A stretch of 39,959 nt of DNA from the IMG/VR virus record IMGVR_UViG_3300005298_000015, positions 1-39,959 of that record; one strand, written 5' to 3'. Source of the DNA: a virus (taxonomy: Duplodnaviria; Caudoviricetes). A model generated the notes under the pieces. It ran no database searches. It was not told the DNA's origin and worked only from the letters and a program-made list of their open reading frames with translations. Position 1 is the stretch's first letter. Each line of letters opens with the position of its first letter. Positions 43-39,129 of this stretch are shown in pieces. Position numbers and translations under genes: made by a program.

Positions 43-242
43 TGTAACAAAAATCGGGGACGTATATATATGCATTTTTTGTTGTTACAATTGTTACTTT
101 GTTACTAAAACACCGTTTTACTCCCCAAAACACGCAAACATAGTTCCATCAACGCTTTTCTCCGATCTCCCTTTAAACCCCTCTGTAACAATTCTCAAAA
201 ATCAAACACCCAGGTCTGTTACAGGAGCCGATTTTTGTTACA
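43..242. repeat. 15-bp inverted repeat enclosing a cluster of TGTTAC/GTAACA motifs (possible origin or protein-binding region)
   Basis: TGTAACAAAAATCGG at 43-57 and its reverse complement CCGATTTTTGTTACA at 228-242; further TGTTAC at 83, 92, 100, 217 and TGTAAC at 184. Confidence 0.75.
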
Positions 243-251
243 AAACCTCTC

Positions 252-280
252 TTGACAAATTCTTAAAAATATGCTATATA
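252..280 (+). promoter_or_regulatory. sigma70-type early promoter with extended -10
   Basis: TTGACA(252-257)-N17-TATATA(275-280), TG at 272-273; GGAGG RBS at 301. Confidence 0.85.
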
Positions 281-311
281 AATACCAGAAAAACAAAAAA
301 GGAGGGCCAAA

Positions 312-545
312 ATGAAGAGAATGAGAATTTCAAAACAAAATACACTTTCTTGGTTATACAAAAACTTTGGCATAGGCGGAATTGAAAACTACGATCCCCG
401 CCAAGTGGACGAAATACTTTCAGCGCTGAGAATTATTCTCCAAAATTGTGGGCTAATAGAGCTCGAATTTTTAGGCAAATTCCTTTTAAAACTCTCAGAA
501 GATCCTACGCTTGTTGATAAGCTTTTAGATGAACTTAGCTTTTAA
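312..545 (+). CDS. hypothetical early protein (77 aa)
   Basis: ORF with GGAGG RBS directly downstream of a consensus promoter. Confidence 0.75.
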   Translation: MKRMRISKQNTLSWLYKNFGIGGIENYDPRQVDEILSALRIILQNCGLIELEFLGKFLLKLSEDPTLVDKLLDELSF

Positions 546-558
546 AGGAGGTGCAAAA

Positions 559-1005
559 ATGAAGAACGCAGAAAACAAAAAGAAGGTAGAAAATATACGC
601 TTAATAGAAGTTTATGAAGATTTTACGGTAGAGCCTCGGGGAATATATGATATAGAATGGAGGTTCAAAAGAATTTCGCTAAATTATAACGGTACATTAT
701 ATTTCATCGAGGTAGGTTATGTATATTATCCCGAAAGTATTTTCGAGCATTCTTTCAAGTTTATAACATCGATATGCCCCAAGCGAATTGCGAAACTTAT
801 CTTAAACAACAAGTTCAATAATACCGACATTGAAAAATGCGGATATACTTATCGAGTGCCCTTCATAAGCGTTTTGAAAGAAATTCCACCTTTAGGAGGT
901 TTAAAAATTCTCTTTTACAAAGAAGCCCCTACTTTCGATCAGTTATTTCAAAAAGTCTCTAAACGCTTCTCTTATCTTGCTTCCTTATTTTGCCAGGAGG
1001 CTTGA
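559..1005 (+). CDS. hypothetical early protein, paralog family A
   Basis: Start moved to ATG 559 after GGAGGTG; shares F..I.....G..Y....G....P / Y..PFI..L motifs with 4615-4986 and 5004-5366. Confidence 0.8.
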   Translation: MKNAENKKKVENIRLIEVYEDFTVEPRGIYDIEWRFKRISLNYNGTLYFIEVGYVYYPESIFEHSFKFITSICPKRIAKLILNNKFNNTDIEKCGYTYRVPFISVLKEIPPLGGLKILFYKEAPTFDQLFQKVSKRFSYLASLFCQEA

Positions 1006-1030
1006 CAAAATCACCAAATTATGCTATATA
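1002..1030 (+). promoter_or_regulatory. sigma70-type early promoter
   Basis: TTGACA(1002-1007)-N17-TATATA(1025-1030) with TG extension. Confidence 0.85.
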
Positions 1031-1051
1031 AAAACAAAAAGGAGGTGCAAA

Positions 1052-1351
1052 ATGAAGCAAGCCGCAGAGGTCAAAATAAATAAATCAAAAGTAAAAAAAG
1101 TGACTTTACAGGCCCCCAAGGGGGAGAGTCAAGCTTATGTAGTTCAAGACTGTGGTAGCTGGAGACCGCTTGATATTTTCCTAAACGAACACAGTTTAAC
1201 CTACATTATTGAAACTATGTATCAGGTCAACACTGAGCCAGAAGCATGGAATTATTTCAAGTACACATATAATACACTTGAGGGTTTTAAAAAATACCTT
1301 AACCCTCCTCCTCCCAAAATAACCTTAACGATTGAAGACATCCAAGATTAA
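1052..1351 (+). CDS. hypothetical early protein, paralog family B
   Basis: ATG 1052 after GGAGGTG; clearly similar to 3076-3387 (W.PLD.FL..H.LTY, YFK.TY, FKKYLNPPP.KI.LT.ED). Confidence 0.85.
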   Translation: MKQAAEVKINKSKVKKVTLQAPKGESQAYVVQDCGSWRPLDIFLNEHSLTYIIETMYQVNTEPEAWNYFKYTYNTLEGFKKYLNPPPPKITLTIEDIQD

Positions 1352-1386
1352 CAAGATTGAAACACTCATAAATATATTCCCCCCTT

Positions 1387-1419
1387 CCCCTGCCCCCTTT
1401 TACGGGAGCAGGGGTTTTT
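1387..1419 (+). terminator. intrinsic terminator
   Basis: CCCCTGC...GCAGGGG stem followed by TTTTT. Confidence 0.75.
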
Positions 1420-1516
1420 ATTTTATCCCCCTTTCCCTTTAACCCTTAAAACCAATTCGCCGACCGCTTGACACCTTTAGGTATGGATCAGGTGAAATTC
1501 CTCATCATTTAACCCC

Positions 1517-1545
1517 TTGACAAAATCATCGAAATATGCTATATA
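1517..1545 (+). promoter_or_regulatory. sigma70-type early promoter
   Basis: TTGACA(1517-1522)-N17-TATATA(1540-1545) with TG extension. Confidence 0.85.
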
Positions 1546-1581
1546 AATGTTAGAAAAATAAAAATAAAAAGGAGGGGCAAG

Positions 1582-2025
1582 ATGAAGACCGACGTTTATG
1601 TTAGTAATAAAGATGCTGAACTCATCCAAAAGTTCGTTGAGGAATACTTCCAACAAGAAGAAGAATTATCCTTTTTAACATATCCTCATCCCACCCCGAT
1701 TTGGGAAGAGTTTTTCAGGCTCCTTCAGGACCTTGGAGCGGGAAGGTTGTATTATAAAGTCTTCTGTTCTTGTTGTGGTCCTGAACTTACATTCGAGGTG
1801 ACAGATAAGTATTTCCCCGCCTCATGTGATTTTCAATTACTTAATAGTCTACAGGAGCTTCTCCACCAAAAGCGAAAAGAAATTATTCAATATTTCATCA
1901 ACAAAATTTACTTCGCTGACACGCAGTACGAAAAAGAACGATACATTACGCTTGCCTCTTTACTTTTCCACCCCTTTCTACTTCCAAAATTAATAGCTGT
2001 TAATACGTATTTCAGAAAAAGATAA
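1582..2025 (+). CDS. hypothetical early protein with CSCCG motif; homologue of the target of CRISPR spacer 1
   Basis: 147-aa ORF with GGAGG RBS, own promoter and terminator; 1819-1855 matches the reverse complement of spacer 1 at 29/37 nt. Confidence 0.85.
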   Translation: MKTDVYVSNKDAELIQKFVEEYFQQEEELSFLTYPHPTPIWEEFFRLLQDLGAGRLYYKVFCSCCGPELTFEVTDKYFPASCDFQLLNSLQELLHQKRKEIIQYFINKIYFADTQYEKERYITLASLLFHPFLLPKLIAVNTYFRKR

Positions 2026-2039
2026 AATAGACGTTTAAT

Positions 2040-2064
2040 CCCCCCTCAAAGAGGGGGGCTTTTT
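2040..2064 (+). terminator. intrinsic terminator
   Basis: CCCCCCTC-AAA-GAGGGGGG hairpin followed by CTTTTT. Confidence 0.85.
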
Positions 2065-2138
2065 ATTCATTTTTTTTTAAACACTTTTAAAACATCACTA
2101 AAACTATCGAAAATCTTATTTAAACTCTTAAAAATTCC

Positions 2139-2167
2139 TTGACAAACTTTTAAAAATATGCTATACA
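2139..2167 (+). promoter_or_regulatory. sigma70-type early promoter
   Basis: TTGACA(2139-2144)-N17-TATACA(2162-2167) with TG extension. Confidence 0.8.
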
Positions 2168-2194
2168 AAAAAACAAAAAAGAGGAGGGAGGGGA

Positions 2195-2668
2195 ATGAAA
2201 ACAAAACTGATAGAAAAAGAGTTCACTGCATGTCTGGGTGAAGTTTTATATAATAATTTAAGGTATTTCAAAAAAATAAGAAAACTTTATGTTTATCGTG
2301 TTGGGGGCCCATACTTCGGCCCCTACGGTGGTCCCAACTTTTGGGGACAGTATTTTATTTTCTCAACTGTCCCCCTCGATGAACATTCAGAAGAAAGTTA
2401 TTTATGTCAACTAATCACTAAATCTACCCCAAATTATTCTACCGAGTATTTGTTTTTGCAACCCACTTCCCAAGAACCCAAGTTTGTGCTCTGTCTTAAC
2501 TTCACCGAAAAGTGGAAATGGGTGAAAAAGGCTTCTTTATGGTACTGCCTAACCGAAGAAAATCCCCTCCCCCAAGGAGCGGAGATCATCTTCAAAGGAG
2601 GGAGCTCCTCCCTCCAAGCCCGCCGAGGCTCCGAATGGGCTTTATTCTTATACCCTTTAACCCCTTGA
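2195..2668 (+). CDS. hypothetical early protein, paralog family C
   Basis: Shares Y..GG..FGP.GG..F...Y.I, FT..WKW..K and GGS.....R.G..W.L with 3558-4217. Confidence 0.85.
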   Translation: MKTKLIEKEFTACLGEVLYNNLRYFKKIRKLYVYRVGGPYFGPYGGPNFWGQYFIFSTVPLDEHSEESYLCQLITKSTPNYSTEYLFLQPTSQEPKFVLCLNFTEKWKWVKKASLWYCLTEENPLPQGAEIIFKGGSSSLQARRGSEWALFLYPLTP

Positions 2669-2693
2669 CAATTCTTTTTAAATATGTTATATA
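2665..2693 (+). promoter_or_regulatory. sigma70-type early promoter
   Basis: TTGACA(2665-2670)-N17-TATATA(2688-2693) with TG extension. Confidence 0.85.
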
Positions 2694-2727
2694 GATGTCG
2701 AAAAAACAAAAAATAAGGAGGTTGCGC

Positions 2728-3030
2728 ATGAAGTACACAGTTCGGCTGAAGGAGGCAAAAGTGGTAAAAATATCAATAGGTGATAGGGAAATCGGGGAAA
2801 CCTACCTTTTTAACGAGAAGTTCCTTGACGACCTCCTTTCTCCCTACAACAGGTGTGTCATCGACAATTTTCTTGCGCTATACGACATCCCCGCAGACAT
2901 AAAGGAACTTTTAGAAAGAATACTCGAACACGATTTTGAAATTTTTAATACCTTCTTCCAATTTCTTTCACGTAATCCATCTGAAGTCATTACTATTGAA
3001 ATCCAAGATTACCCCCCAACCCCCTTCTGA
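2728..3030 (+). CDS. hypothetical early protein, possibly a distant member of family B
   Basis: ATG 2728 after AAGGAGGT; similar length and weakly similar termini (V.L...KV.K, FL.D, P...I.I..QD) to family B. Confidence 0.75.
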   Translation: MKYTVRLKEAKVVKISIGDREIGETYLFNEKFLDDLLSPYNRCVIDNFLALYDIPADIKELLERILEHDFEIFNTFFQFLSRNPSEVITIEIQDYPPTPF

Positions 3031-3075
3031 AGATCAATAACCTTAAATATGATATATAAAAAAAGGAGGTGTCAC

Positions 3076-3387
3076 ATGAAAAACAAAGTGGAAGCAAAAC
3101 TAAACAAAGAAAGGGTGAAGAAAGTCATTATACAGACACCTTTTGCTAAGGCCATTGGATATGTTGTTTATGACAATGGTAATGATATTTGGTTACCATT
3201 AGACAAATTCTTAAAAGACCATACTTTAACTTATGTTCTTTCAATTATGTATGATGTCGAAAAAGAGAAAATATGGGATTACTTTAAACACACATATAAA
3301 TATGATATGCTCGAAAAATTTAAAAAATACCTTAACCCTCCCCCTTCCAAAATAATTCTAACAGTTGAAGACGTTAAAGATATATAG
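3076..3387 (+). CDS. hypothetical early protein, paralog family B
   Basis: ATG 3076 after GGAGGTG; paralog of 1052-1351; TGaTATATA extended -10 at 3050-3058. Confidence 0.85.
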   Translation: MKNKVEAKLNKERVKKVIIQTPFAKAIGYVVYDNGNDIWLPLDKFLKDHTLTYVLSIMYDVEKEKIWDYFKHTYKYDMLEKFKKYLNPPPSKIILTVEDVKDI

Positions 3388-3417
3388 AAAATCAAAACAC
3401 TTATATATATAAATATA

Positions 3418-3452
3418 CCCCTGCTCCTTTTTACAGGGGTAAGGGGGTTTTT
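3418..3452 (+). terminator. intrinsic terminator
   Basis: CCCCTGCTCC...GGGGTAAGGGGG imperfect stem plus TTTTT; resembles the terminator at 1387. Confidence 0.65.
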
Positions 3453-3500
3453 CGCTTTATCCCTCTCCTTCCTTAATTTTCTATCAGAACCAAAAACCCC

Positions 3501-3529
3501 TTGACAAATTTTTTAAAATGTGATATATA
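3501..3529 (+). promoter_or_regulatory. sigma70-type early promoter
   Basis: TTGACA(3501-3506)-N17-TATATA(3524-3529) with TG extension. Confidence 0.85.
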
Positions 3530-3557
3530 AAAGAAAAAATTGAAAAGGAGGTGCAAA

Positions 3558-4217
3558 ATGGAGAAAGTATTATGCCGAGTCTGTGGGAAAGAGATTGAGG
3601 ACTGGGGGGTGTTGGTTGCGAAAGGAGCCACCCCTCCTAAATTATGCGAGCCGTGCCGAAGGCAAATCCGTGAGTACCGAGCAAAAATGATCGTGAAACA
3701 TGAACCAATAAGGGTAGTTGAGGCGAAATTGGGGCCTCGACTTGTACGTAACCTCAGACCCGAGGGGAAATGCGAAAATTTTGCTCCTCAAATCTACCCT
3801 CAATGCTTCAAATACAGCATTGGGGGACGGGGCTTTGGGCCCTGGGGAGGGGCCAGGTTTGAAAAAAAATATATCATTTACACATACATAGAACCCCAGC
3901 CTGAGGCACCTGTTTTGGTGCGGTTAATGCGAAAGCAGGAGGCTGAAGGATGCCTACGGTGGTTTTACCTCGTTTTTGAACCACCAGTATCGGAAGAGCC
4001 TCCCAACCTCTGGTTAGAATTGTGGTTCACGAGGGTCTGGAAGTGGACCCTCAAGGGATTCGGGAGGCAATTCAAAAGATACTACCCAATTAACGTCCCT
4101 CACGAGACCCTCTTGACCGGGGGATCTCGTGCGAACTCGGGGCGATTCGGTAACCACTGGGAGCTTATTCTGTGCGAAGAGCTCCCGGAGGAGGTTGTAA
4201 TTGAAGAAGAGATTTGA
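3558..4217 (+). CDS. family C protein with N-terminal zinc-ribbon (CxxC...CxxC)
   Basis: ATG 3558 after GGAGGTG; CRVC...CEPC; C-terminal part aligns with 2195-2668. Confidence 0.85.
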   Translation: MEKVLCRVCGKEIEDWGVLVAKGATPPKLCEPCRRQIREYRAKMIVKHEPIRVVEAKLGPRLVRNLRPEGKCENFAPQIYPQCFKYSIGGRGFGPWGGARFEKKYIIYTYIEPQPEAPVLVRLMRKQEAEGCLRWFYLVFEPPVSEEPPNLWLELWFTRVWKWTLKGFGRQFKRYYPINVPHETLLTGGSRANSGRFGNHWELILCEELPEEVVIEEEI

Positions 4218-4230
4218 CAGGAGGGAGAGG

Positions 4231-4542
4231 ATGAAGGAGAGGAAAAGAACCGGACGGCCCAGGGGCGGGATGTATGTCCGAGTCCTGCCCGATGGGCACG
4301 TGATAGTATGGAGGGAAGTACTGGAGGCTTTAAAGGAATCCTATTACGAACGTGAGGGGATAGACAAATATCCACGCTACGTTTCGTACGACGTAGTTGG
4401 GGAAAAGGTTCAGATATGGCCTACCAGCGAGGTGGGCCCGTACACAATTACCTTGCAAATTCATCCCCGAGCGACCTTCTTCCGGGCCAGGAAATTGGCC
4501 CGGATAGTGGGGGTGGGGGTGAAGGAGGTTGAAGTGTTATAA
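4231..4542 (+). CDS. small basic protein, possibly AbrB/MazE-like DNA-binding
   Basis: ATG 4231 after AGGAGG; RTGRPRG followed by VRVLPDGHVIVWREVLEAL, reminiscent of the swapped-hairpin pattern. Confidence 0.55.
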   Translation: MKERKRTGRPRGGMYVRVLPDGHVIVWREVLEALKESYYEREGIDKYPRYVSYDVVGEKVQIWPTSEVGPYTITLQIHPRATFFRARKLARIVGVGVKEVEVL

Positions 4543-4547
4543 AAAAG

Positions 4548-4590
4548 AAGGGGGAAGCGGGGTCATATCCCTTGCTTCCCCTTTTGTTTT
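4548..4590 (+). terminator. intrinsic terminator (possibly bidirectional)
   Basis: AAGGGGGAAGCGGGG...CCCTTGCTTCCCCTTTT stem with T-rich tail and upstream A run. Confidence 0.75.
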
Positions 4591-4614
4591 ATACGAACAA
4601 AAGGAGGTGTAAAA

Positions 4615-4986
4615 ATGAAGGTTAAGATTCTTTCGATTAAAGATAAAGGAGGAGCCAATAATTGCTTTGAGGAAATAGCTTTTAACATTGACGGTAAGCG
4701 CTATAAACTTCTGATCGGTTTTGTTTACCGTCCTGCAAATGAAGTAGAAGCTAAAATAAATCCCTATATTCTGCAAAATCACGCAAAATACGATATAAAC
4801 AAACATACAGAGGGTTACGCCATTCCATTTATTGCTTTAATTTCCCGAAATAATTTATTGTTTTATGAAGAATGTGATAATTACCGTTCGTTAATAGCAA
4901 AACTCATCAACACTTATCCTCACCTTTCTGAAGTCGTCAAGAGAAGTTTGTATTATACTTATGCGTTGCAAAAAGTTATTGAATAA
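4615..4986 (+). CDS. hypothetical protein, paralog family A
   Basis: GGAGGTG RBS; FEEIAFNIDGKRYKLLIGFVYRP / YAIPFIALI motifs. Confidence 0.85.
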   Translation: MKVKILSIKDKGGANNCFEEIAFNIDGKRYKLLIGFVYRPANEVEAKINPYILQNHAKYDINKHTEGYAIPFIALISRNNLLFYEECDNYRSLIAKLINTYPHLSEVVKRSLYYTYALQKVIE

Positions 4987-5003
4987 TCAAAAGGAGGTGT
5001 ACC

Positions 5004-5366
5004 ATGAACAACCCAACACCCAAAATAACCTTTATACAAACAAACAAAACTGAAGACGAATTTTTGTTTGACGAAATTCGATTCTCTTATTTAGGTCAAC
5101 CCTACATCCTCAGAGTAGGCTTTACCAAAATCCCCAAAGAAGACCTTAATGCTAACATTGTTATAGACCTTCTTTTTATCGAAGAAACCGATGTTGATGA
5201 AGACGACTTTTATTACTATATTCCCTTTATTATGCTTCTGCGTTCGCACATTATGATCGAATACTACGACCAGCAAAAAACCTTTAAAAAACTGTTCGAG
5301 GTTTTTTTGAATTATTGGCCTGAGTTAGACGAAATCTGCAAACAAACACAATATTTTTATTACTAA
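5004..5366 (+). CDS. hypothetical protein, paralog family A
   Basis: GGAGGTG RBS; FDEIRFSYLGQPYILRVGFTKIP / YYIPFIMLL motifs. Confidence 0.85.
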   Translation: MNNPTPKITFIQTNKTEDEFLFDEIRFSYLGQPYILRVGFTKIPKEDLNANIVIDLLFIEETDVDEDDFYYYIPFIMLLRSHIMIEYYDQQKTFKKLFEVFLNYWPELDEICKQTQYFYY

Positions 5367-5400
5367 AACAAAACAATAAAACTTTAAAAGGAGGTGCCGC

Positions 5401-6135
5401 ATGGAAAAAGTATTGTACGAAGTCACCCTTAGCTTCACCTCTCCCGTTTTAGGACTTAACCCCGCAGATCAATTTTCATTGCCTTTTGTTTTGAGTAAAT
5501 CAAAAGAGGAACTCGAAAAACTTGAGAAAGCCATTGAAAAAGAAACTGATGAGGAAAAGAAGGCTATTTTAATCGAAAAAGCTGATCGGTTGCGTGCCGA
5601 AATAGAGGAACGTGAAACTGAGTTATTGTCCGAGCTCGAGACCAGAAAGACTATCTTTGCGAAAGACGCAGAGGGGCGACTTGGGTTTTATCACTATCAA
5701 ATTAAGGGCTACATGAAAGAAGTAGCCCATCTTTTCTTCTCCGAAAAACGAGGGAAAGCTTCTCTTAAAACTTTGATCAGCCGCTATGTGGACATATATC
5801 CCTCACACACCGATCTGAAAGCCTCGTGGGATAAAACCTTAGTTTGTCCTTTTAAACGAAACGGCGATTACATTTACGTTCCCGACGGCGAAATAAGCAG
5901 GCCCCTTCGGTCTTTTTCTCACAGCCAGTACATTGTGACGATCTCTCAATCTGATGTCTTGTATCCTCCCCTTGAGCTTGATTTTAAGGTCTTGGTTCTA
6001 AACAGTTATTTAACCGACAACGACATAGTGGATATATTTAAACAAGGCGAGAACTGGGGGATGTCCCAGTGGAGAACTGCAAGGTACGGGCGTTTTGTGC
6101 TTAAGAAAGTGAGCAAAATAAAGGTAAAAGAATAA
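5401..6135 (+). CDS. solo Cas7/RAMP-like RNA-binding protein
   Basis: N-terminal YEVTLSFTSPVLG strand, YQIKGYMKE (RAMP S.KG..R-like helix), C-terminal G-rich loop GENWGMSQWRTARYGRF; acidic coiled insertion at about aa 33-82. Confidence 0.7.
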   Translation: MEKVLYEVTLSFTSPVLGLNPADQFSLPFVLSKSKEELEKLEKAIEKETDEEKKAILIEKADRLRAEIEERETELLSELETRKTIFAKDAEGRLGFYHYQIKGYMKEVAHLFFSEKRGKASLKTLISRYVDIYPSHTDLKASWDKTLVCPFKRNGDYIYVPDGEISRPLRSFSHSQYIVTISQSDVLYPPLELDFKVLVLNSYLTDNDIVDIFKQGENWGMSQWRTARYGRFVLKKVSKIKVKE

Positions 6136-6139
6136 AAGC

Positions 6140-7045
6140 GAAGGATACGACTTTTACAGAGAAGAAGGGAAGGGTTAAGAGAGGAATAGGAAGAGGGAGA
6201 GGAATAGGAGGAGGGAGAGGAATAAAAAAAGAGAAGGGGGGAGGAGCATTAGGTGAAAAGAATAGCAAAATTGGAATGGATTGGATGGGAAGAGAAGTGG
6301 AATTGCCGGAAAGAGTAAAATGGTGCGGAATAGATTTGATCAAAGAAGAATTAGATGAGACTTGAATGGATGCGATGCGAAGAGGATAAGATCGAAATGG
6401 ATCGAAATAAAATCGGATTTGATTGAAGCAGAAAGGAAAAGGATGGGAATCAATCGGAAAAGGAGGCGATAGGAGGCAAACAGAAGAGATGAGATTGGTA
6501 AAACTAACTAAAATATGAAATGGAGGCGATACGAGAGGAAGTGGAAAGGCAGCAATCAGATTAGAACGGTAGAAACAGAATAGAAATGAGATGCGGTAGA
6601 AATGATAACAAAACAACGGATGACAAACGAAATTGTTTTTAAGGATGGGAAAGGATATGTGGTGAACGGAATAGGAAAAGGAAAGGAAAGGAGTGGAGAG
6701 TAGTTGAAGAAAAAGGAGAAAAGAAAAACAGAAGAAAGGAGGAGGAGAAAAGAGTAGAAGTGAGGGGAGTTGGCAGGATAGGGAAGTAATATAAACTGAT
6801 CGGCTCGACCGGATTGAATATGGAATGGGAGAAGAATAGATTAGACCGGACCAGAACTGAAAAGGGAAGGGAGGGGATGGAAGAAGATAGGATCAGCCTG
6901 GATCAGAGCTGAAAAGAAAGAAAGATGAGAAAAGGAAAAGTACTGAGGGGAGTTAACTGGAGAGGAGGTGAGGCGAGGGGAGGGGATTTGAGAGGGACCT
7001 GTGTTGAGAAGCTTTGAAATGAATCGAATCTGAATCGAATAATAA
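6140..7045 (+). ncRNA. putative non-coding guide array: purine-rich 5-nt periodic GAN-NN repeats
   Basis: No + strand ORF of 60 aa or more in the track; in-register pentamer runs such as 6354 GATGA GACTT GAATG GATGC GATGC GAAGA, 6834 GAATA GATTA GACCG GACCA GAACT GAAAA, 6945 GAGGG GAGTT AACTG GAGAG GAGGT GAGGC GAGGG GAGGG GATTT GAGAG. Periodicity is seen; RNA function is inferred. Confidence 0.65.
6179..6224 (+). repeat. 18-nt tandem repeat, 2.5 copies
   Basis: GAGAGGAATAGGAAGAGG / GAGAGGAATAGGAGGAGG / GAGAGGAATA. Confidence 0.85.
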
Positions 7046-7050
7046 AAGGG

Positions 7051-7079
7051 TTGACTTTTAAACGTTTTTGTGTTATAGA
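7051..7079 (+). promoter_or_regulatory. promoter of the replication gene
   Basis: TTGACT(7051-7056)-N17-TATAGA(7074-7079) with TG extension. Confidence 0.75.
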
Positions 7080-7099
7080 ATGCGGAAAGGAAGCAATAA

Positions 7100-9781
7100 A
7101 TGAAATATTACAGACAGCCACCCAAGAAGAGAACCATTGATCCCCTTCTTGAGGAATACTTAAAGCTATACCAAAAGTACAATTTTAAAGTCATTCCTTT
7201 ATCTGTTAATTCAAAAGTTCCAATTAAAGACTTACCTTTACAAGATATCTATAACGGGGAATCCTATGTTTACAACTGGGATTTTCATGAGGGCAATATC
7301 GGTATTGTAACTGGCTTTGAAAACTTAGCTGTGATTGACTGTGACAACCAAGAAACAGCCCAATGGCTTGAAGAGCAACCCGAATATCAACCTACTGTTG
7401 TAGTCCGAACCCGCAGAGGTTTTCATTATTACTTTTTTATCATTGATGCCACAAAACACGACTATTACACTACAGGGGTAAAAGATAAAGAAGGCAAATT
7501 TAAAATCGACTTCTGTTTCGGAAAAAAATATGTAGTAGCCCCACCATCGGAAATACGGGAAAACGGCAATGTTTACCAATATCGTTTTATACAAAACTTT
7601 GATCTTGCCAGCCGCAGATTGGATATTGCTATATTAACCCTTTCAGCCTATCACAACCTAATCAAAAAAGCCCGAGAAAAAGCAGGCCGAACCCTGATAG
7701 CTGATGAAGTAGCCGAAAAAGTAAAGTTTTATCAAAACTCACATACGGATGTAGGGGCTCTTAATTGTTTCCTTGAGATTATTGAAATTGTCAAAAGATA
7801 TTACACCGAAGGTAATAGACAATCTTTTTGGCTTGGATTAGCAGGCATAGGTCGTAAATTAGGTTTAAAACAAGAACAGGTACTGGATATTTTAAGGCGT
7901 GAGTTATACGAAGGACTTAATGACACCGATCCATGGTCTCAGCGCTTAAGTGCCATTACCGAGACTTTCGAAAAAGACGTTTCCCAAATTGCTGGTATTT
8001 CAATCATTACCCAACTGGTTGATCCAAGTACAGCCGAACACATAAATACCCTTCTGAAGGATTATTCCCGTAAGTATCAGATTCTCCAAAAGGGTGAAGA
8101 CGTTGTTTTAACCGAAGAAGCGCTGGTTCAGGCGGTAAAAATCGTGAAGAAGTGGGGCAAAACTTTTGCTTTGATTGAAGGTGACTGGTACGTTTTGACC
8201 AATAAAGGATACTTAAAGCCCGTTTGCGCCGGCTTCTGGGTACTTGAGACCTGCTATGATCCTAACCTTCAAAAAACCGTTTTAATGATTAAGGATGCTA
8301 AAAACTACCGAGAAGGACAGGTAGGCCTTGATTATGATGAAATCAAAGAATTTTTGGCCCGTCCTATCTTAGATGTAGCGAATTTTAAATATCTCATCTA
8401 CGCTTTACTTGATGAAAAAAAAGAAAAACAAATATTCCACCATACTGGCTGGATTATTTTACCCAACAAAACAAGGATATTTTTACATCCGCTGAATAAC
8501 GAAACATTAGGAAGGTATAACTTAGCTTGCCAGCTACATGCTTCAAAAAAACTTGATCGGATGTTTTGGTATGCTAATTCTGAGGAACAGCATAAATTAG
8601 TCAGGAAGCTTTTACACGAAGGCAATTTGCTTGGCGTTAAGATAGTACTTGCGTGTGCTTCGCTGTTCCTTGATGAGATTACAAAAGGCTTTTCGGTATT
8701 TGACATAGGTCCACGGGAAGTAGGAAAAACGCTAACCTCACAATTTGTGGTTTCTCTTTTTTACGACGCTACAGCCCCCCTGACCACTAAAGCTACAGCG
8801 ACGGGTTTAGAACTTGTTATACAACGCTTTAAGAATTTGCCGATTTTACTTGATGAATTGGCGCTTATTTCCGATCGGAGCGTTGAAGAGTTGGTGTTTT
8901 TGGTTGCATCAGGGCGTGGCAAAACAAGGGGGACAAAAACCTTAGAAATTGACTTTAGGGAACAACATTCGGTTATATTCTGCACAGGTGAAAAGGAGCT
9001 GAAGTTTGACAGGTTTGGGGCTTTTCGAAGGACAGTTTACATCGAACCTACTTTATGGAACGACTATACAATTTACTACCGACCCCGTGAAATAGCCTCA
9101 GCGATAAGCAACATGCAAGGGGTCGGCTTTGACTGGATCAAATACTTAGAAACACACGAATTTAACGATAGTATTTCACTTGAAAACTTTGAAGGTTTTC
9201 CTTTTATAAAAGCGGTTGAAAAATCATTAGCCTTCCTCAAAAAATACTACAACCTGAATGATGCCGAGATGGAGCGTTTGTATTCCAAGATGTGTGAGGT
9301 ATTTTCGGTTCAAGCCGAGAAAAAAATGATTGACCTTGAAGACTATATAATCAACAGCTTTACGGAATTTATACTTCAGAATTTGCCTCGTTTTCTCGTC
9401 TATTCAAACGACGTTCTTACCCGTGGCCCAGCCTCTGCGGTAGGGAACCTATACGGGGTGTTTTTCGTTGACCAAAACAAATTGTTCCTTGTGTCCAAAG
9501 CTCTGAGCGATTTTTGCGAGAACAGCAAAATGAACGAAAAAACGGTCAAGAAAACCTTAGCCGAAAAAGACATCCTGATCCCCCAGATGAGGATCCAAAG
9601 GGGCGAAAAATCCTACAGGCAGATAAAACGCATTAAATATGCCAACACTTCGCTCGTCCTTTCAGGCTACCTTTTTGACCTCAACAAACTCGGCGCTGAA
9701 TTCACCGATCAACTACTTTCCGAATTAACAAGCATGGAAGGCGAAAAATTCAACGTAGGGTTAGATGATTTACCCTTTTAA
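7100..9781 (+). CDS. bifunctional primase-polymerase fused to a DUF927-like P-loop helicase
   Basis: Prim-pol motifs NIGIVTG, VIDCD, T.RG.HYYF, YVVAPPS; Walker A GPREVGKT and Walker B ILLDE; GRGKTRG; acidic DDLPF tail. Confidence 0.85.
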   Translation: MKYYRQPPKKRTIDPLLEEYLKLYQKYNFKVIPLSVNSKVPIKDLPLQDIYNGESYVYNWDFHEGNIGIVTGFENLAVIDCDNQETAQWLEEQPEYQPTVVVRTRRGFHYYFFIIDATKHDYYTTGVKDKEGKFKIDFCFGKKYVVAPPSEIRENGNVYQYRFIQNFDLASRRLDIAILTLSAYHNLIKKAREKAGRTLIADEVAEKVKFYQNSHTDVGALNCFLEIIEIVKRYYTEGNRQSFWLGLAGIGRKLGLKQEQVLDILRRELYEGLNDTDPWSQRLSAITETFEKDVSQIAGISIITQLVDPSTAEHINTLLKDYSRKYQILQKGEDVVLTEEALVQAVKIVKKWGKTFALIEGDWYVLTNKGYLKPVCAGFWVLETCYDPNLQKTVLMIKDAKNYREGQVGLDYDEIKEFLARPILDVANFKYLIYALLDEKKEKQIFHHTGWIILPNKTRIFLHPLNNETLGRYNLACQLHASKKLDRMFWYANSEEQHKLVRKLLHEGNLLGVKIVLACASLFLDEITKGFSVFDIGPREVGKTLTSQFVVSLFYDATAPLTTKATATGLELVIQRFKNLPILLDELALISDRSVEELVFLVASGRGKTRGTKTLEIDFREQHSVIFCTGEKELKFDRFGAFRRTVYIEPTLWNDYTIYYRPREIASAISNMQGVGFDWIKYLETHEFNDSISLENFEGFPFIKAVEKSLAFLKKYYNLNDAEMERLYSKMCEVFSVQAEKKMIDLEDYIINSFTEFILQNLPRFLVYSNDVLTRGPASAVGNLYGVFFVDQNKLFLVSKALSDFCENSKMNEKTVKKTLAEKDILIPQMRIQRGEKSYRQIKRIKYANTSLVLSGYLFDLNKLGAEFTDQLLSELTSMEGEKFNVGLDDLPF

Positions 9782-9788
9782 AAGGGAC

Positions 9789-9817
9789 TTGACAAATTTT
9801 AAAAGTTGTGATATATA
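9789..9817 (+). promoter_or_regulatory. sigma70-type promoter
   Basis: TTGACA(9789-9794)-N17-TATATA(9812-9817) with TG extension. Confidence 0.85.
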
Positions 9818-11309: not shown

Positions 11310-12299
11310 ATGTTGATTGAAAAAATTAAACAAATCAAAAAAGGAAGTGTAGCGCCTGTTCATTCAAACAGGTGCTCAACAATAGGCCATGACTGTCTCA
11401 GGTATTTGGTTTACGAGCGTACTATGTGGCATGTAAAGCCTGAGCCGAGTTTTGATCTTCTGAATCGTTTTGATATAGGAAAGATTTTAGAAAGGCAAAC
11501 TATAATTGACCTACAGCAAGCAGGTGTTGATGTGATCTTGCAGCAACAGTCATATTACTTGAAGGAGTACGAGTTGAGCGGAAAAATTGATGGTAAAGTA
11601 GTTGTAGATGGTAAAACCTACATCATAGAGATAAAATCTGTTGATTCTTATTCGTTCCATGTTTTTCGTTCAGTCGAAGATTTTTTGAACACCGACAAAG
11701 TATGGCATCGTGGGTGGTATCATCAGTTGAATATGTATTTGCATATGGCCACTTCTGAAGGTGAGAAAGTAGAAGGCGGGATTATTATTTTGCGTTCGCT
11801 TGATGGAAAGTGGAAAGAGATTCCTATGTCTTATAATCCCCAAAAGGCCCAAGAAGTACTTCAGAAGTGTTTGATGATTAACGAATACGTTAAAAAAGAA
11901 GAAGTTCCAGAGCCAATATACAAGTCTAATCCCGAAAAAATCAAAATTTGCTTGGAATGTGCATACAAAACCTTCTGTTTGACCGAAATGCCGAGCATGG
12001 AGCATGTTATTTTTGAAGAAGCTAACCAAGAAATGATTGAGAAAATCAAGCGCCTGAAGGACTTAGAAGCTTACAAAAAAGAATACGAAGCCTTAGAAGA
12101 AGAGATCAAATCTGCTTTCAAACCAGACAAGCAACTTATGAAAGAAATGTTAAATAAAAATCAAGATTTTAAGGCTTTTGTGTTAGGTGATTATGTTGTA
12201 AAAATGAAGCTTTATTGGCAAACAAGATATGATATTCCTGAAGAGATCAAGAAAGAATATGCCAAAAAAGAGCCAGCTTGCAGGATAACTATTGAATAG
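11310..12299 (+). CDS. Cas4-like PD-(D/E)XK exonuclease
   Basis: LSGKIDG, IIEIKS, YHQLNMYL motifs; N-terminal Cys plus C-terminal CLECAYKTFC (Fe-S-type arrangement). Confidence 0.8.
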   Translation: MLIEKIKQIKKGSVAPVHSNRCSTIGHDCLRYLVYERTMWHVKPEPSFDLLNRFDIGKILERQTIIDLQQAGVDVILQQQSYYLKEYELSGKIDGKVVVDGKTYIIEIKSVDSYSFHVFRSVEDFLNTDKVWHRGWYHQLNMYLHMATSEGEKVEGGIIILRSLDGKWKEIPMSYNPQKAQEVLQKCLMINEYVKKEEVPEPIYKSNPEKIKICLECAYKTFCLTEMPSMEHVIFEEANQEMIEKIKRLKDLEAYKKEYEALEEEIKSAFKPDKQLMKEMLNKNQDFKAFVLGDYVVKMKLYWQTRYDIPEEIKKEYAKKEPACRITIE

Positions 12300-30903: not shown

Positions 30904-33039
30904 CTAAAAAGTATACCAATTCGATCCATCGCTAACTACCCTCACAATTCCATATTGCGCTGTGATGTTAACAGAAGACTGCCCATCGATAGTTTGCCCA
31001 CTTTGAGGTGAAACGGTTACAGTGTTTGAGGAACTGTCAATTTTCTTGATAATATACTGCCTTCCTGCGCAAGTCGTAGCGTCGGGAAGAGTTATTGTTC
31101 TGCTACCATCTGAAGCATTAACAAGAACAACATGATGATCTGCCCCAAGTGTTGTATTTGATGTAACTGTATGTACTCGTGTTGCAAAAGAGCCGTAACA
31201 GTGCAATTTGCTACTCGGAGCCGTAGTTCCAATACCAACATTGCCGGTATGTGTAATTGACATTCTCGGTACTGGATACTCAGAAATGGTACTAGACGTC
31301 GCAAAATCTAACCTTACGTTCTTACCCCATGTATCTGTCGCATATGCTTCTATGTACGCTTGTCTCCCCCTTTGGTTGGCTTCATCTATATTTGAGTCCC
31401 ATGTTAGCGAAAACCACAAACGAGCTGCATTTCCAACCTCTTCAGTCTGTTGCCCATGAATAACAACTTCTCCTCTCCCAGTAGCATTTTTTATATGTAA
31501 CATTCTGGTTGGTGCTGTTATCCCAATACCAACCTTGCCATATATTGTTCCTCCGCTACCTCTGTTCAAATAAGCCGGGAAGGGATCAAGTTCATAATTA
31601 GTCCAAACCACTTCAAAAATATGCATATATCCAAAACCAGGTTTTGGAGCTTGTAAAATAATTTTGATTTTTTTTGTTCCATATGCTTGTGTACCAGTCA
31701 ATAAAACATAAACACCTTGCTCAGCAGGCCAATTGGTTTGAGTATCAGATAATGAAAGCTGATCGTTTGCATCATAAAATTCAACCGTAAATTGGGAAGG
31801 GGCATAATTAGGATAAAAATAAATTATAAATTGACGCATATACGAGTAAGCAGTTTCTAAATTGAAAGTAATTGTTACTGGGGCATCTGAGGCATTCCAA
31901 TAAACGGGAGCACCTCTTCCGTCTACTAATTGACTTAAGCTGCCATAAGCTGGTGTTTTATCTGAAGTTATAGAGCCTCCTTTGTATGGTAAAAATAACA
32001 ATTGGTTAAAAGCCCCTGGAACAATTAAGGGCAATCCACCTCTACCATAACCTGTAAAATCGGTAAAAAAGCCAAAAATTTCGGAAGGTTGTTTGTTTGA
32101 AAGATCAGCACCCAAATATTTACCGCCTGCTATTATAACGTTTCCATTAACTTCTAATGATTCAGAAGGGGTTGTTATACCTATGCCAATCTTATTATTC
32201 ACAATTAAGTTATCCAAAGTCACATCTTCCGGTAACCAACCCTCATCAATTTTCCCATCTGAACCCGCCACAGGAATAGTGTTTGCTGTTGGGGTTTGTG
32301 ATGCGTGATAGCCATCAAGTTTATCTGCATCTAATCCGCTTCCTGAACCTTGAGGACTAATCGTATCTGGGGCTTGGGTGCCTGTATGATTAGCCCTGTT
32401 CAAATAATAACTTCCTTCTTGTCCGTCCAATTTATCAGCATCCAGGCCACTGCCGCTACCCTGTGGACTAATCGTGGATGGTGGTTGAGTGCCAATGTGA
32501 TGGGTTCTGTCTAAATAATAACTTCCTTCCTGGCCATCTAATTTATCAGCATCTAACCCAGAGTTGTGGCCTTGAGGGTTAATAGTATTTGGTGGTTGGG
32601 TTCCTGTATGATTAGCTCGGTTTAAGTAATAATCTCCGTGTTGTCCGTCTAATAAATCAGCATCAAGTGTTGACCCAGATCCTTGGGGATTAATAGAACT
32701 GGGAGGTTGTGTCCCGGTGTGATTAGCCCGATCTAAATAATAACTACCATGTTGCCCATCAAGTAAATCAGTATCAAGATTGCTTCCTGAACCTTGAGGG
32801 ATCCATCCTAAGTTAATTTTACCTGTACTTTCAGCTACAGGAATTGTATCAGCTGAAGGGGTTTGTGAAGCATGATAACCATCTACTTTATCAGAGTCTT
32901 TTGCTTTTTGTGTAGCTGGATCATTATCCACAAAACAATCAGCAAGCATTTCAAAGTTGGTGTTTGCTTCGTTTAAGTCCTGCTCAATCTGATTTTCAGC
33001 TTCACCCTCGTATTCAAAAGGTCTTCTGGTATAAGGCAT
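30904..33039 (-). CDS. tail fibre protein with internal repeats
   Basis: DADKLDG repeats, three VGIG.T.P...L-type motifs, C-terminal TITLP...G....IKK.D domain. Confidence 0.8.
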   Translation of the reverse strand: MPYTRRPFEYEGEAENQIEQDLNEANTNFEMLADCFVDNDPATQKAKDSDKVDGYHASQTPSADTIPVAESTGKINLGWIPQGSGSNLDTDLLDGQHGSYYLDRANHTGTQPPSSINPQGSGSTLDADLLDGQHGDYYLNRANHTGTQPPNTINPQGHNSGLDADKLDGQEGSYYLDRTHHIGTQPPSTISPQGSGSGLDADKLDGQEGSYYLNRANHTGTQAPDTISPQGSGSGLDADKLDGYHASQTPTANTIPVAGSDGKIDEGWLPEDVTLDNLIVNNKIGIGITTPSESLEVNGNVIIAGGKYLGADLSNKQPSEIFGFFTDFTGYGRGGLPLIVPGAFNQLLFLPYKGGSITSDKTPAYGSLSQLVDGRGAPVYWNASDAPVTITFNLETAYSYMRQFIIYFYPNYAPSQFTVEFYDANDQLSLSDTQTNWPAEQGVYVLLTGTQAYGTKKIKIILQAPKPGFGYMHIFEVVWTNYELDPFPAYLNRGSGGTIYGKVGIGITAPTRMLHIKNATGRGEVVIHGQQTEEVGNAARLWFSLTWDSNIDEANQRGRQAYIEAYATDTWGKNVRLDFATSSTISEYPVPRMSITHTGNVGIGTTAPSSKLHCYGSFATRVHTVTSNTTLGADHHVVLVNASDGSRTITLPDATTCAGRQYIIKKIDSSSNTVTVSPQSGQTIDGQSSVNITAQYGIVRVVSDGSNWYTF
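32311..32799 (-). repeat. 111-bp (37-aa) tandem repeat, four full copies plus a partial
   Basis: Consensus PQGSGSGLDADKLDGQ.GSYYL.RANHTGTQPP.TI. at aa 81-243. Confidence 0.9.
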
Positions 33040-33348: not shown

Positions 33349-34410
33349 TTAAGGGTATATGTTTGTAAGTTGCCAAAAATCGTTTAAAATATAACTTAAA
33401 TACTCAAAAATTTCTCCTGTTCCTATATAAGCACTATTATTTATTACAAAAACAGTAGCGTCTTCTATATCGTATTCTAATTTTAATAGTGCATGCCAAA
33501 TATTGTTATAAGGATCATAAAACCAAATATCACGCAAACCTCCAGCTATATATCCATAATTTCCTATGTTAAATCCTACTGGTCTAAATCTTGCTGAGGC
33601 TGGAAACATGTATATTTGAGTCCAAGTATTGTTTGAAGGATCATATTTCCAAAAGTCTCTTAAAAGTTTAGAAGGAGTTTCGCCCATTCCTACATAACTA
33701 TATTGTTTTATAGAAAAAGCTGCTGCTCCTCTTCTTGCTTCGCCCCCTAAATCACTCACTTGTGTCCAAGTGTTATTTGAAGGGTCGTAACGATAAAACC
33801 ATTTACGAGTATAGTGATTTAAATCTGCACCAGTTCCTACATAAGCATAATTGTTTATAGTAAAAGCAACAGCTAAATATATTTGAATAGGAAAATCTGT
33901 TATTTGAGTCCAAATATTATTTAAAGGATCATAACGCCAAAAATCCTGAGAAGGACCCCATCTATCTTCTTCATCAACCCATCCTGTTCCTACATAAGCA
34001 TATTCACCTATAACAAAAGCAACAGCCCAATACCTTCTTATAGGATGATCAGCTATCTGAGTCCAAACATTTATAGAAGGGTCGTAGCGATAAAAATCTT
34101 TACAAGCTTCTTCGCTCTCTCCTGTTCCAACATAACCATAGTTATTTATAGCAAAAGAAACAGCTCTATACCTTTCAGCGCCTATAAATTTTGAAATCTT
34201 TTTTAATCTTGCTCCTGAAACGGAAGGTTTACCCCAAAAGACCCATTTATTACCATCCCATATGACGTAATTTTTAAAATCAGTATCATAAACAATCTCA
34301 TAATCATTAGGTGATAATTGACGTCTTTCCTGAGTAGAAAGGAATTTAACTGTTTTTGCTTTTATTAAAGACCTTACATAATTAAATTTTTCTTCAAAAT
34401 TGGTGCTCAT
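33349..34410 (-). CDS. Kelch-repeat beta-propeller protein
   Basis: About six repeats of R..A.AF.I...YVGTG...DF.RYDP..N.WTQI. Confidence 0.9.
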   Translation of the reverse strand: MSTNFEEKFNYVRSLIKAKTVKFLSTQERRQLSPNDYEIVYDTDFKNYVIWDGNKWVFWGKPSVSGARLKKISKFIGAERYRAVSFAINNYGYVGTGESEEACKDFYRYDPSINVWTQIADHPIRRYWAVAFVIGEYAYVGTGWVDEEDRWGPSQDFWRYDPLNNIWTQITDFPIQIYLAVAFTINNYAYVGTGADLNHYTRKWFYRYDPSNNTWTQVSDLGGEARRGAAAFSIKQYSYVGMGETPSKLLRDFWKYDPSNNTWTQIYMFPASARFRPVGFNIGNYGYIAGGLRDIWFYDPYNNIWHALLKLEYDIEDATVFVINNSAYIGTGEIFEYLSYILNDFWQLTNIYP

Positions 34411-34419
34411 TTTGCTCCT

Positions 34420-35889
34420 TTACTGATAAACAATAGTTATTTTAAGAAGATATAAATGGGTGTCTTCAACTTCTTCGTTATCCCATGCACCTGTATGCAC
34501 AATACCTCCCCAATAAACATTATACTCATCAATAGGCCACACAACTCCCCCTGCGGCAGTGTAAGGTATTTCAAAAGCTACTTCCCATTGATTGGTGTTA
34601 GGATCATAACTTAAGAAATTACGAGGATGTTCATATTTAGCATATTGATAACCTCTTGTGCCTCCACCTATGTAGCCACGATTTTCTAAAGTAAAACCTA
34701 CCGCAAGAAACCTACCTACATTTTCAGCATTAGGAATTCGAGTCCAAGTGTTTGTAGAAGGATCATATTTATAAAAATCGCTCAAATTATAAAAAGGACT
34801 ATATTCATTACGAGAAGCTTTGCCAGCTCCAACATATGCATAATCGCCAATCACAAAAGAAGTGGCCCAAAATCTTCCTGCTACTACTACATCAGGTAAA
34901 TCAGCTACTTGTGTCCAAGTATTAGTATTAGGATCGTAACGATAAAAATCTTTAAAGTAGTGGCTATACGAATCATCTCCCGTTCCGACATATGCATGAT
35001 TATTAATTACAAAAGCTACTGCTCCTGCTCTTGGATATCCAGGTAAATCTGCTATTTGAGTCCAGGTATTTGTATTAGGATCATAACGCCAAAAATCTTG
35101 AGAACAATTATAAGATGAAAACAATCCTGTTCCTGCATATCCATATCCTTGTAAACTAAAGCCAACTAAACCAGCTCTCTCGCCTCCACCAAAGTCTGCT
35201 ATTTGAGTCCACACTTTTTCAACAAAATTAAACTTATAAAATTCTTTATAAATTGTCCATACTTGGAAATATTGGCTATACAATCCTCCAGCTCCTATAT
35301 AGCCATTTCCGTTTATAATAAAGCCTACTGGCAATTCCAAAAGTGATGGGGTGAAGGTTACTCTTTCTACTCTCGATCCATACGTTGACATACCAGTTAA
35401 AAAATCCCATTTTTCACCATTCCAAATTGCAAAACATTTACAATCAGTATCATAAACTACCAATCCTTCGTTTTTATAAGCCAAAGCACGTCTTTCTTCT
35501 GCTGAAGCGACTATAAAGGAGAAAGGTTCCTTTTTTAATATAACCACCCAAAAGCAAGCGTTATCAAAATATACTTGATCGCCTTTTTTAACCGATGTTA
35601 AATCAACTTTTATAGTAAACCATAAAGTAGTTCCTGAAAAAATACCAATTTGGTTAAACTCTCCCCAGTCACTTAAAGCACGAGGGAAAGATATAGGCTG
35701 TTTGTTGGTAATATAAAAAGCATCTTCATCTTCATACAATTCTAAATGAAAAGAAGGGGTTATCGGTATTCTTCGATAATTGCTTCCAGAAAGTTCTACT
35801 CCGTCTTTTAAAAGCCCAATGTCGGTTATCGAGTTAAAAATTAAGTCAACAAATCCTTTTTTAACTATATCCCACAACATTGTGCTCAT
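34420..35889 (-). CDS. Kelch-repeat protein with N-terminal tail-fibre-like domain
   Basis: Kelch repeats as above; N-terminal ELSGSNY.R...N...I.FP.A..DWG.....GIF. Confidence 0.88.
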   Translation of the reverse strand: MSTMLWDIVKKGFVDLIFNSITDIGLLKDGVELSGSNYRRIPITPSFHLELYEDEDAFYITNKQPISFPRALSDWGEFNQIGIFSGTTLWFTIKVDLTSVKKGDQVYFDNACFWVVILKKEPFSFIVASAEERRALAYKNEGLVVYDTDCKCFAIWNGEKWDFLTGMSTYGSRVERVTFTPSLLELPVGFIINGNGYIGAGGLYSQYFQVWTIYKEFYKFNFVEKVWTQIADFGGGERAGLVGFSLQGYGYAGTGLFSSYNCSQDFWRYDPNTNTWTQIADLPGYPRAGAVAFVINNHAYVGTGDDSYSHYFKDFYRYDPNTNTWTQVADLPDVVVAGRFWATSFVIGDYAYVGAGKASRNEYSPFYNLSDFYKYDPSTNTWTRIPNAENVGRFLAVGFTLENRGYIGGGTRGYQYAKYEHPRNFLSYDPNTNQWEVAFEIPYTAAGGVVWPIDEYNVYWGGIVHTGAWDNEEVEDTHLYLLKITIVYQ

Positions 35890-36262: not shown

Positions 36263-37903
36263 TTATTTCTTTTTCTTTTCTTGGGCTGCCTGTGCTAAAG
36301 CTATAAGCTCAGCCATTTCTTTCTTTTTGATGTATTCTCTCTTAATTTTACTTTTCATTGGAATGGGTAAAAGATCTATCAAAACTTCGGGATCTACTAA
36401 GCCCGTCTCAATTAAACCAAACAAAAGTTCTTGGTAATTCATCGCCATAATCGGTGAGGAGGTATGAGCATAAACCTCAACCCTAAAGGGTGTCATTAAA
36501 GCGGCAAAACGTGGATCAAAAACTACTAAATACCTTCCCCATAAGCTCATTATATCCTCTATAAACTTTTCGAAGCGCAGGGCTTTTTGTTTAAGATGCG
36601 CAGATGCAAACATACTGATCAACTGTGCATGCGACGCCGAACGGACACCGCTTATGTTTAAACCTAAAATAGTAGGACTTAAACCAAGGTTCTCCACCAT
36701 GTTTTGCTCACACTTGTTTAAAAACGCATAAATAGCATCCAAGCTAACTCGTGGGACGTATTCCTCAACCTTAAGGTCGGGACTGTCAATTAAAACAACA
36801 CCGTTTGGGGTTTTTAACTGCTTTACTACATCGTCTACCGTTAATACGCCGCCTATTGTAGCCATCACTACGGGAGGGTTGATCATTTTATCAGTCGCCT
36901 CTTCAAGCTTATCCAGCCATTTTTTAATGGTCCGCTGTGTCCTAATTACCCGATCACCAGTGCCAACGCCTATGTTGTTCACGCCTAAAATTGGCTCAGC
37001 AATATACATACTAAACGGGTAATTGTACATGTCATAAGGACTTACACCATGCTGAACTACCTTATTCCCAATTACCACCGCTCGGCTTACATAACCATTC
37101 TCCAGCTCTTTATACCAAACCTCGTAAACATTGATTATTTCACCCGTCATGCTGTAGCTTTGACCGAGGATCAGGTACTTTAAAAACTCAAAAAAGTTCT
37201 CGTAAAACTGTTCAAAGTTTATAGGTTCAGCTTCCACACCGTAGCTTTGATTTACAAAAGTTTCAAGCCTCTTCAAAACATTCTGATCGATGGTCTCCAA
37301 TTGAAGAGTCCGAATGGCAAACATCTCGGGTTGAGCTAATTTGACCAATTCCTCGCCAAAAAGTTTGACCGCTTCAGGTATGCCCATCCTGATCACCCTG
37401 ACTATACGCTGACTTGGATCCTCTAACTCAAGCTGGGGGTAGTAAAAGTAAATCTCCCAGGGATAAATCAATGTAGCCTTAACTCGCCCTTTTTCACGGG
37501 GAGCCAAAAAGATGCCACTTGAACCAAAAATTTCGCCAATCATCGCCGCAAGATAAAACTGATAGTCAAGCCCCAAAGTGTAAAAATTATCACTTAAAAA
37601 CTTACGAGCTTTTTCGGCTAACTTTAACTCAAAATCACTGGAAGGCTCTTCATCAAACTCAACGTCAAAAATTATGTTGTCACTCGAATAAATAAGGGAG
37701 GTCACAAGGTTCACATAACGGCTCAAATAATCCAAACCTTCAGGCGCTTTAAACAGCTCATTGATAATATCCACCCACCTCGGCAGCATAAAACGCCACT
37801 GCGCCTGCGCCGCCCGAACCGTATCTAATACCTCCTCAACACTTAAATACGAACCCTGGGAAGCTTTACTTACATCTTCCTTGCGCCTCACCCTGCGCTT
37901 CAT
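36263..37903 (-). CDS. portal protein
   Basis: 546 aa, first large gene of the structural operon; YPF, G.G...I..Q, NPP, LG......RSA layout typical of podovirus portals. Confidence 0.7.
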   Translation of the reverse strand: MKRRVRRKEDVSKASQGSYLSVEEVLDTVRAAQAQWRFMLPRWVDIINELFKAPEGLDYLSRYVNLVTSLIYSSDNIIFDVEFDEEPSSDFELKLAEKARKFLSDNFYTLGLDYQFYLAAMIGEIFGSSGIFLAPREKGRVKATLIYPWEIYFYYPQLELEDPSQRIVRVIRMGIPEAVKLFGEELVKLAQPEMFAIRTLQLETIDQNVLKRLETFVNQSYGVEAEPINFEQFYENFFEFLKYLILGQSYSMTGEIINVYEVWYKELENGYVSRAVVIGNKVVQHGVSPYDMYNYPFSMYIAEPILGVNNIGVGTGDRVIRTQRTIKKWLDKLEEATDKMINPPVVMATIGGVLTVDDVVKQLKTPNGVVLIDSPDLKVEEYVPRVSLDAIYAFLNKCEQNMVENLGLSPTILGLNISGVRSASHAQLISMFASAHLKQKALRFEKFIEDIMSLWGRYLVVFDPRFAALMTPFRVEVYAHTSSPIMAMNYQELLFGLIETGLVDPEVLIDLLPIPMKSKIKREYIKKKEMAELIALAQAAQEKKKK

Positions 37904-39100: not shown

Positions 39101-39129
39101 TTGACAAGTTTAAAAGTTTATGCTATAGA
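39101..39129 (+). promoter_or_regulatory. sigma70-type promoter of the same class as the early promoters
   Basis: TTGACA(39101-39106)-N17-TATAGA(39124-39129) with TG extension. Confidence 0.8.

Follow-up and report, generated by a model that had tools for sequence, protein, structure and literature searches.

The window, i.e. the whole stretch of 39,959 nt analysed here, is a phage contig in which a Pfam scan of 37 ORFs recognized a primase-polymerase, a Cas4-like exonuclease, a terminase and a lysozyme; a podovirus-type capsid match scores below its cut-off. The Cas4-like exonuclease (11310-12299) falls below the NCBIfam cas4 cut-off; it is the sole cas-like match among the 37 scanned ORFs, and the contig has no cas operon. 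The listed runs which hold the right end of the window are hot-spring metagenomes. The closest named phage is Hydrogenobaculum phage 1 (HP1, NC_028651.1), which is described in the accessible part of PMC7689252. The terminases of the two are 67% identical, and 8 of 20 tested window proteins are matched in HP1 with their order kept, including the primase-polymerase and the Cas4-like exonuclease (gp09 in HP1, 50% identity). Unlike the window, HP1 contains neither a homologue of ORF 1582-2025 nor the CRISPR repeat described below. Two further relatives, L001 and L002 (terminases at 86% and 67%), extend neither to the gene at 1582-2025 nor to the right end, and no relative was found in the viral_contigs collection with the protein of 36263-37903 or with alignment A1.

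The gene at 1582-2025 (+ strand, 147 aa) lies behind a sigma-70-like promoter repeat, and its product has no Pfam or NCBIfam family and no usable Atlas match. The promoter, followed by a strong ribosome-binding site, is present in at least 8 copies (at 251, 1001, 1516, 2138, 2664, 3500, 9788 and 39100), each of which precedes one or a few small orphan genes of the left arm, the gene at 1582-2025 among them; a left arm with repeated promoters is typical of an early, host-takeover region. Two small genes at 1052-1351 and 3076-3387 are paralogous, with about 70% DNA identity over 260 nt and similar hairpins downstream. The intergenic 70 nt at 1441-1510 are matched, with about 11 differences, by X1-X3 contigs at a depth of 560-670, and because these contigs are so deep, the segment looks like an abundant repeat or small RNA gene of the host; an Rfam scan of the whole window gave no match. 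In the structural arm, 33349-35889 (- strand) and 32312-32922 hold a pair of beta-propeller proteins with Kelch repeats, along with a tail-fibre-like gene whose tandem repeats are 111 nt long. The two contig ends are linked by a 32-nt inverted repeat (108-139 with 39666-39697, 84%), and short GTTAC/GTAAC repeats lie close to both of them (39-115 and 39757-39801), which could mark an origin or packaging region if the ends adjoin in the real genome.

Protein searches with the product of ORF 1582-2025 returned two homologues, P0002 (78-79% identity) and P0003 (40%). P0002 is identical to the window protein at residues 80-87 and differs from it at 88, 89, 91 and six of 94-100. Besides, the contig of a relative in X1/X2 overlaps the ORF from 1880 onwards.

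At its right end the window carries a short CRISPR segment on the + strand, which consists of repeat 1 (39802-39831, 30 nt), spacer S1 (39832-39868, 37 nt), repeat 2 (39869-39898, identical to repeat 1), spacer S2 (39899-39936, 38 nt) and repeat 3 (39937-39959), which is cut by the contig end. The preliminary description regarded this array as the window's own. It turned out that the last 185 nt (39775-39959) are identical to an internal stretch (1360-1544) of a 62-repeat array, L082, in which 20 repeats stand before the stretch and 39 after it. The repeats of the window segment are thus most likely host-array DNA, S1 corresponds to spacer 21 and S2 to spacer 22 of L082, and the order of S1 and S2 behind spacer 20 (here S0) is fixed inside the 61 spacers of that array. 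L082 and a second array with the identical main repeat, L083 (78 repeats, 77 spacers), are bare CRISPR arrays without flanks or cas genes and come from another metagenome assembly; together they contain 138 spacers of 34-42 nt, none of which is common to both. No repeat-like site was found elsewhere in the window or in L001, L002 or HP1 (best 19-20/30), and searches of viral_contigs with the exact and the shortened repeat, with S2 and with the stretch across the join gave no hit. The best site of S2 in the window, 25/38, is not above chance. S2 is not covered in X1-X3, which is put down to a gap in the filtered contigs and carries no weight as evidence.

A phage that carried L082 would target itself through three perfect PAM-flanked spacers (see below), which makes a host array the best reading of L082. 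This is the most likely assignment, and the ownership rests on length and content, not on adjacent host genes. The idea of a phage mini-array engaged in inter-phage conflict, implied before, is very improbable, since S1 is spacer 21 of an array which itself holds these three spacers against the phage. Blocks of repeats differ in their last base (T in 46 and C in 32 repeats of L083; A in the first three in L082:49-250), which reflects how repeats are copied from the leader end.

For the 138 spacers of both arrays, we searched ungapped matches in the window, and 27 of them (16 of 61 in L082, 11 of 77 in L083) matched with at most 8 mismatches, a filter that left out two further spacers at 9 and 10 mismatches. 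In the reversed window, used as a control, none of the 138 lay within 8 mismatches and none within 9. None of them lay within 8 mismatches of HP1, and the host assignment of HP1 is not transferable to the window phage. The dinucleotide CC occupies positions -3/-2 (5'-CCN) in 20 of the 27 protospacers (background 0.047, P=1e-21), which fixes the orientation, the same as had been assumed for the array before, and points to a type I system. Codon position 3 accounts for 63 of the 84 mismatches found in the 20 coding matches. Three L082 spacers match the window perfectly with a CCN PAM: spacer 26 (1169-1203, + strand, PAM CCG) and spacers 16 and 55, whose protospacers begin at 38880 and 38891 and overlap within 38880-38927 (+ strand, PAMs CCT and CCG). 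Seven L082 spacers other than S1 combine a CCN PAM and a clean seed with at most 3 mismatches, so the L082 host strain would still be immune to the window phage through these seven. The array is likely of type I-B, because the CCN PAM goes together with related repeats that lie beside Cas3b, Cas5b and Cas7b, while CCN alone does not separate I-B from I-A. According to the available portion of PMC8406132, CCN is the acquisition and interference motif of the Clostridioides difficile type I-B system, and a table in the accessible part of PMC8482600 gives CCN, CCA and CCT for I-B and CCN for I-A.

The matches are unevenly distributed. The contig ends (38800-39801 and 1-240) hold 7 of the 27 within 1,241 nt (P=1.5e-5, for a region picked after looking, in which several matches overlap); 6 of the 7 belong to L082 spacers on the + strand, and a gapped search adds three more (21-51, 39231-39269 and 39562-39585). 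Of the others, 14 fall within 241-9800, and 9801-38799 has no more than 6, where 19.7 would be expected. This distribution fits acquisition from the first-injected end or an origin, or priming. What's more, 7941-7978 is a perfect protospacer of L083 spacer 16 with CTC rather than CCN at the PAM position, which makes it a cleaner single-base candidate for PAM escape than the S1 site, or else for off-register acquisition.

The near-match between S1 and the gene at 1582-2025, from which the preliminary description had started, was confirmed. The reverse complement of S1 agrees with 1819-1855 (protospacer on the - strand, crRNA antisense to the mRNA) at 29 of 37 positions, with a perfect 18-nt core at crRNA positions 11-28, and six of the eight mismatches (2, 4, 7, 8, 9, 10, 29 and 32) lie within the first 10 nt of the spacer. 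The next-best site of S1 in the window reaches 23/37, and none of 2,000 dinucleotide shuffles reached 29/37 (best 26/37 in 2 of 2,000, none at 27 or more). Frame 0 of the ORF yields both peptides quoted earlier. At 29 and 32 the mismatches affect third codon positions and are silent, and the remaining six occupy three adjacent codons; such in-frame, third-position and amino-acid changes support the view that S1 derives from a homologue of this gene in a related phage. A second host spacer, L083 spacer 77, matches the same site (1816-1855, - strand, 33/40) from the same start base and represents a third allele, so near-matches here are common. The PAM position of the S1 site (1856-1858, - strand) reads GCT, as against CCN at 20 of the 27 protospacers, and one change in the next codon would be required for CCN. 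Two independent acquisitions, S1 and L083-77, that start at one base hint at targets with CCN at this position. No perfect target of S1 was found in viral_contigs, metagenome_contigs or phages, all of which are incomplete collections, and neither S1 nor the window protein P0001 had a match in phages. A degenerate pattern of spacer and gene returned nothing from viral_contigs and four loci from metagenome_contigs, namely the window's own contig (L081 and L084) and the arrays L082 and L083.

The preliminary description further proposed that the spacer targets a related phage while the present genome escapes. The origin from a homologue stands, and the window allele is indeed spared: it would not be cut through S1, because the PAM position is GCT and four mismatches (2, 4, 7 and 8) lie in the seed. 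The spacer is, however, not owned by the phage, and escape is a doubtful cause of the seed clustering. For S1 alone, clustering in the first 10 nt has P=0.002, with the region chosen afterwards and the mismatches linked within codons. Over the 25 other spacers, 17.7 mismatches would be expected in the canonical seed and 22 were counted (P=0.14); for the 18 coding ones among them, the count is 14 and the expectation 13.0 (P=0.42). Over all 25, the first 10 nt contain 35 against 25.3 (P=0.011; P=0.035 without S0), an enrichment that fits some selection for escape. Clustering need not reflect selection, because P0002 varies at the same residues: its variation follows the same pattern as that of S1, and the point at which the protein becomes variable is also where the seed end of S1 lies. 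Escape would have needed fewer than six changes in three codons, and losing the match to S1 would bring no gain against the L082 strain. The window protein retains a Q that is E in three other alleles, in keeping with a derived state in the window. Ordinary divergence of a variable protein stretch is therefore the most likely source of the mismatch pattern, and a contribution of selected escape to it seems rather doubtful.

To the left of repeat 1, the window and L082 part. Upstream of S0 there is a repeat in L082 and phage DNA in the window, where 39764-39801 (+ strand) is a protospacer of S0 (34/38, PAM CCT), and the last 27 nt of S0, its 3' end, are identical to 39775-39801. The 38 nt upstream of repeat 1 are thus a protospacer with its PAM and not a leader, and 38800-39959 contains about as many promoter-like sites as chance would give (3 vs 2.8), the nearest being 350 nt away. 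Contigs of 3,709 nt in X1 and X2 (depth 16.2 and 15.3) match 38900-39800 with 0 differences and then continue with 54 letters that are not array. X1 and X2 are listed runs, used as contigs; the two could be a single data set, and the window itself could come from them. Whichever applies, the same phage DNA was assembled without the array. Because these contigs leave the window after 39800, the true overlap of phage and spacer at the join is probably 26 nt. The letters after 39800 do not occur in the window, and the contig could not be closed to a circle. A similar join was found elsewhere: a 771-nt contig of both X1 and X2 covers 57-764 and carries repeat letters at both ends. L083 spacer 9 and a repeat make up its left end exactly, and phage and array have 34 exact letters in common there. 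Logan contigs are built with 31-letter words, which would allow a bridge of 34 nt and not one of 26 nt.

The phage-array join is, we are confident, an assembly chimera, in which the last 158 nt of the window, a copy of the middle of a long, most likely host, array, were probably attached by the assembler. The course of events might be as follows. A host, likely with a type I-B system, would have acquired S1 from a related phage whose allele had a CCN PAM, so S1 is likely a host memory of that phage's version of the gene at 1582-2025. At the end of phage cover, an assembler working with short words would then have crossed from the phage protospacer into the matching spacer S0, and its path would have stopped two spacers later, inside the third repeat.

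It is also conceivable that the hybrid is real, i.e. that phage and host array recombined within the 26-27 nt that the phage has in common with S0, as escape transduction or as the first step towards a mini-array. A crossover would likewise make the window switch from phage to spacer letters within the shared stretch; recombination between spacer and phage is described in PMC8616872, and recombination with host arrays is a proposed route to phage mini-arrays (PMC7099407 and PMC6858448; all three as far as their accessible parts go). We regard such a crossover as improbable, for the phage contigs at a depth of 15-16 run on without a repeat, the window breaks off within a repeat 158 nt past the join, joins of this kind are found at other spacers in other assemblies, and a hybrid extending along L082 would carry perfect self-targeting spacers (26 and 55). 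More improbable still is that repeat-S1-repeat-S2-repeat forms a genuine cas-less mini-array of the phage against a relative, with L082 as a chimera or donor. A repeat identical to the locally abundant one, the lack of a cas operon on the contig, and a spacer that matches the gene of a relative with the carrier mismatched, a pattern reported in the part of PMC6858448 at hand, would all agree with it. It is opposed by the protospacer that takes the place of a leader before repeat 1, by promoter-like sites no more frequent than chance, by the S0-S1-S2 order fixed in a 61-spacer array, by the phage DNA of X1 and X2 that is not followed by a repeat, and by the second host spacer, L083-77, at the same site.

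Partial-match self-regulation, in which S1 RNA would regulate or silence ORF 1582-2025 by partial pairing, had been offered as an alternative before and has the antisense direction of the crRNA and the 18-nt core in its favour. Antisense matches are nothing special here (13 of 20 coding matches, P=0.26), the PAM is absent and the seed broken, and the third-position and amino-acid changes reveal a homologous gene as the source of S1; with the array off the phage, the proposal loses its basis, and we consider it the least probable of all.

As described in the accessible parts of PMC6858448 (SPV1/SPV2) and PMC7099407 (phage mini-arrays), virus-borne mini-CRISPR arrays likewise have a host-type repeat, 1-2 spacers and no cas operon, and like in the window, their spacers are near but not identical to the carrier's own sequence. 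The window segment shares with them the repeat identical to that of the likely host and the lack of a cas operon on the virus, while it has no viral DNA on its far side, no independence from a long array and no leader. Unlike them, it belongs to a long array, is located where the contig ends, is preceded by a protospacer and not by a leader, and is missing from other assemblies of the phage end. Sparing of the carrier is true of S1 alone, as the full L082 has three perfect CCN-flanked spacers against the window. In the spacer-mediated recombination between phage and CRISPR array reported in the portion of PMC8616872 available, the junction similarly lies within the homology of spacer and protospacer, whereas here repeated joins at other spacers point to assembly, and the join is known from contigs only. 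The closest likeness is with spacer-protospacer matches of hosts in hot-spring metagenomes with type I-B CCN systems, which share with L082 and L083 the long array, the 30-nt repeat, spacers of 34-42 nt, the 5'-CCN motif and third-position drift between spacer and present-day phage; L082 and L083 differ from them in having no cas genes, and their subtype was inferred from the PAM and related repeats.

To figure out which organism owns the arrays, we searched the repeat in genomes. The exact repeat has no hit in genome_contigs, and 1 of 22 genomes of G001's order has a single near-copy. The nearest repeats, in Ammonifex thiophilus (L107) and a Thermodesulfobacteriota MAG (L115), differ by 2 letters; these loci were rejected as host evidence, since their 1,517 spacers gave only four partial matches of 16-24 nt, none of them convincing. 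Among 36 ORFs scanned from five loci with related repeats, Cas3b, Cas5b and Cas7b were found in a Desulfovirgula locus (L147, repeat 5 letters away) and Cas1b in an Ammonifex locus (L110, 4 letters away).

If the join were real, the phage would have been caught acquiring an internal piece of a host array by crossover at a spacer aimed at itself, and gaining a spacer against a sister phage; such a join would capture in nature the moment at which recombination gives rise to a phage mini-array, and would show how phages acquire them. As an assembly chimera, the join calls for caution, as mini-arrays and self-targeting can be mimicked by phage contigs whose end is a truncated repeat and in which a protospacer replaces the leader. 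A title-level search of the literature found no report on spacer-bridged chimeras of phage and array, which does not show that they are absent from print. Because many spacers of a host array can be directed at one phage family (27 of 138 here), borrowed spacers will often near-match the phage by construction.

In conclusion, this is most likely a host array recording past infection by diverse local phages, and the "own array" is most likely an artefact and no phage weapon. S1 works like an ordinary host spacer facing a diverse phage population. For the window phage, an undescribed HP1 relative, the analysis also yields a link to its host through the repeat, a CCN PAM and a map of the spacers.
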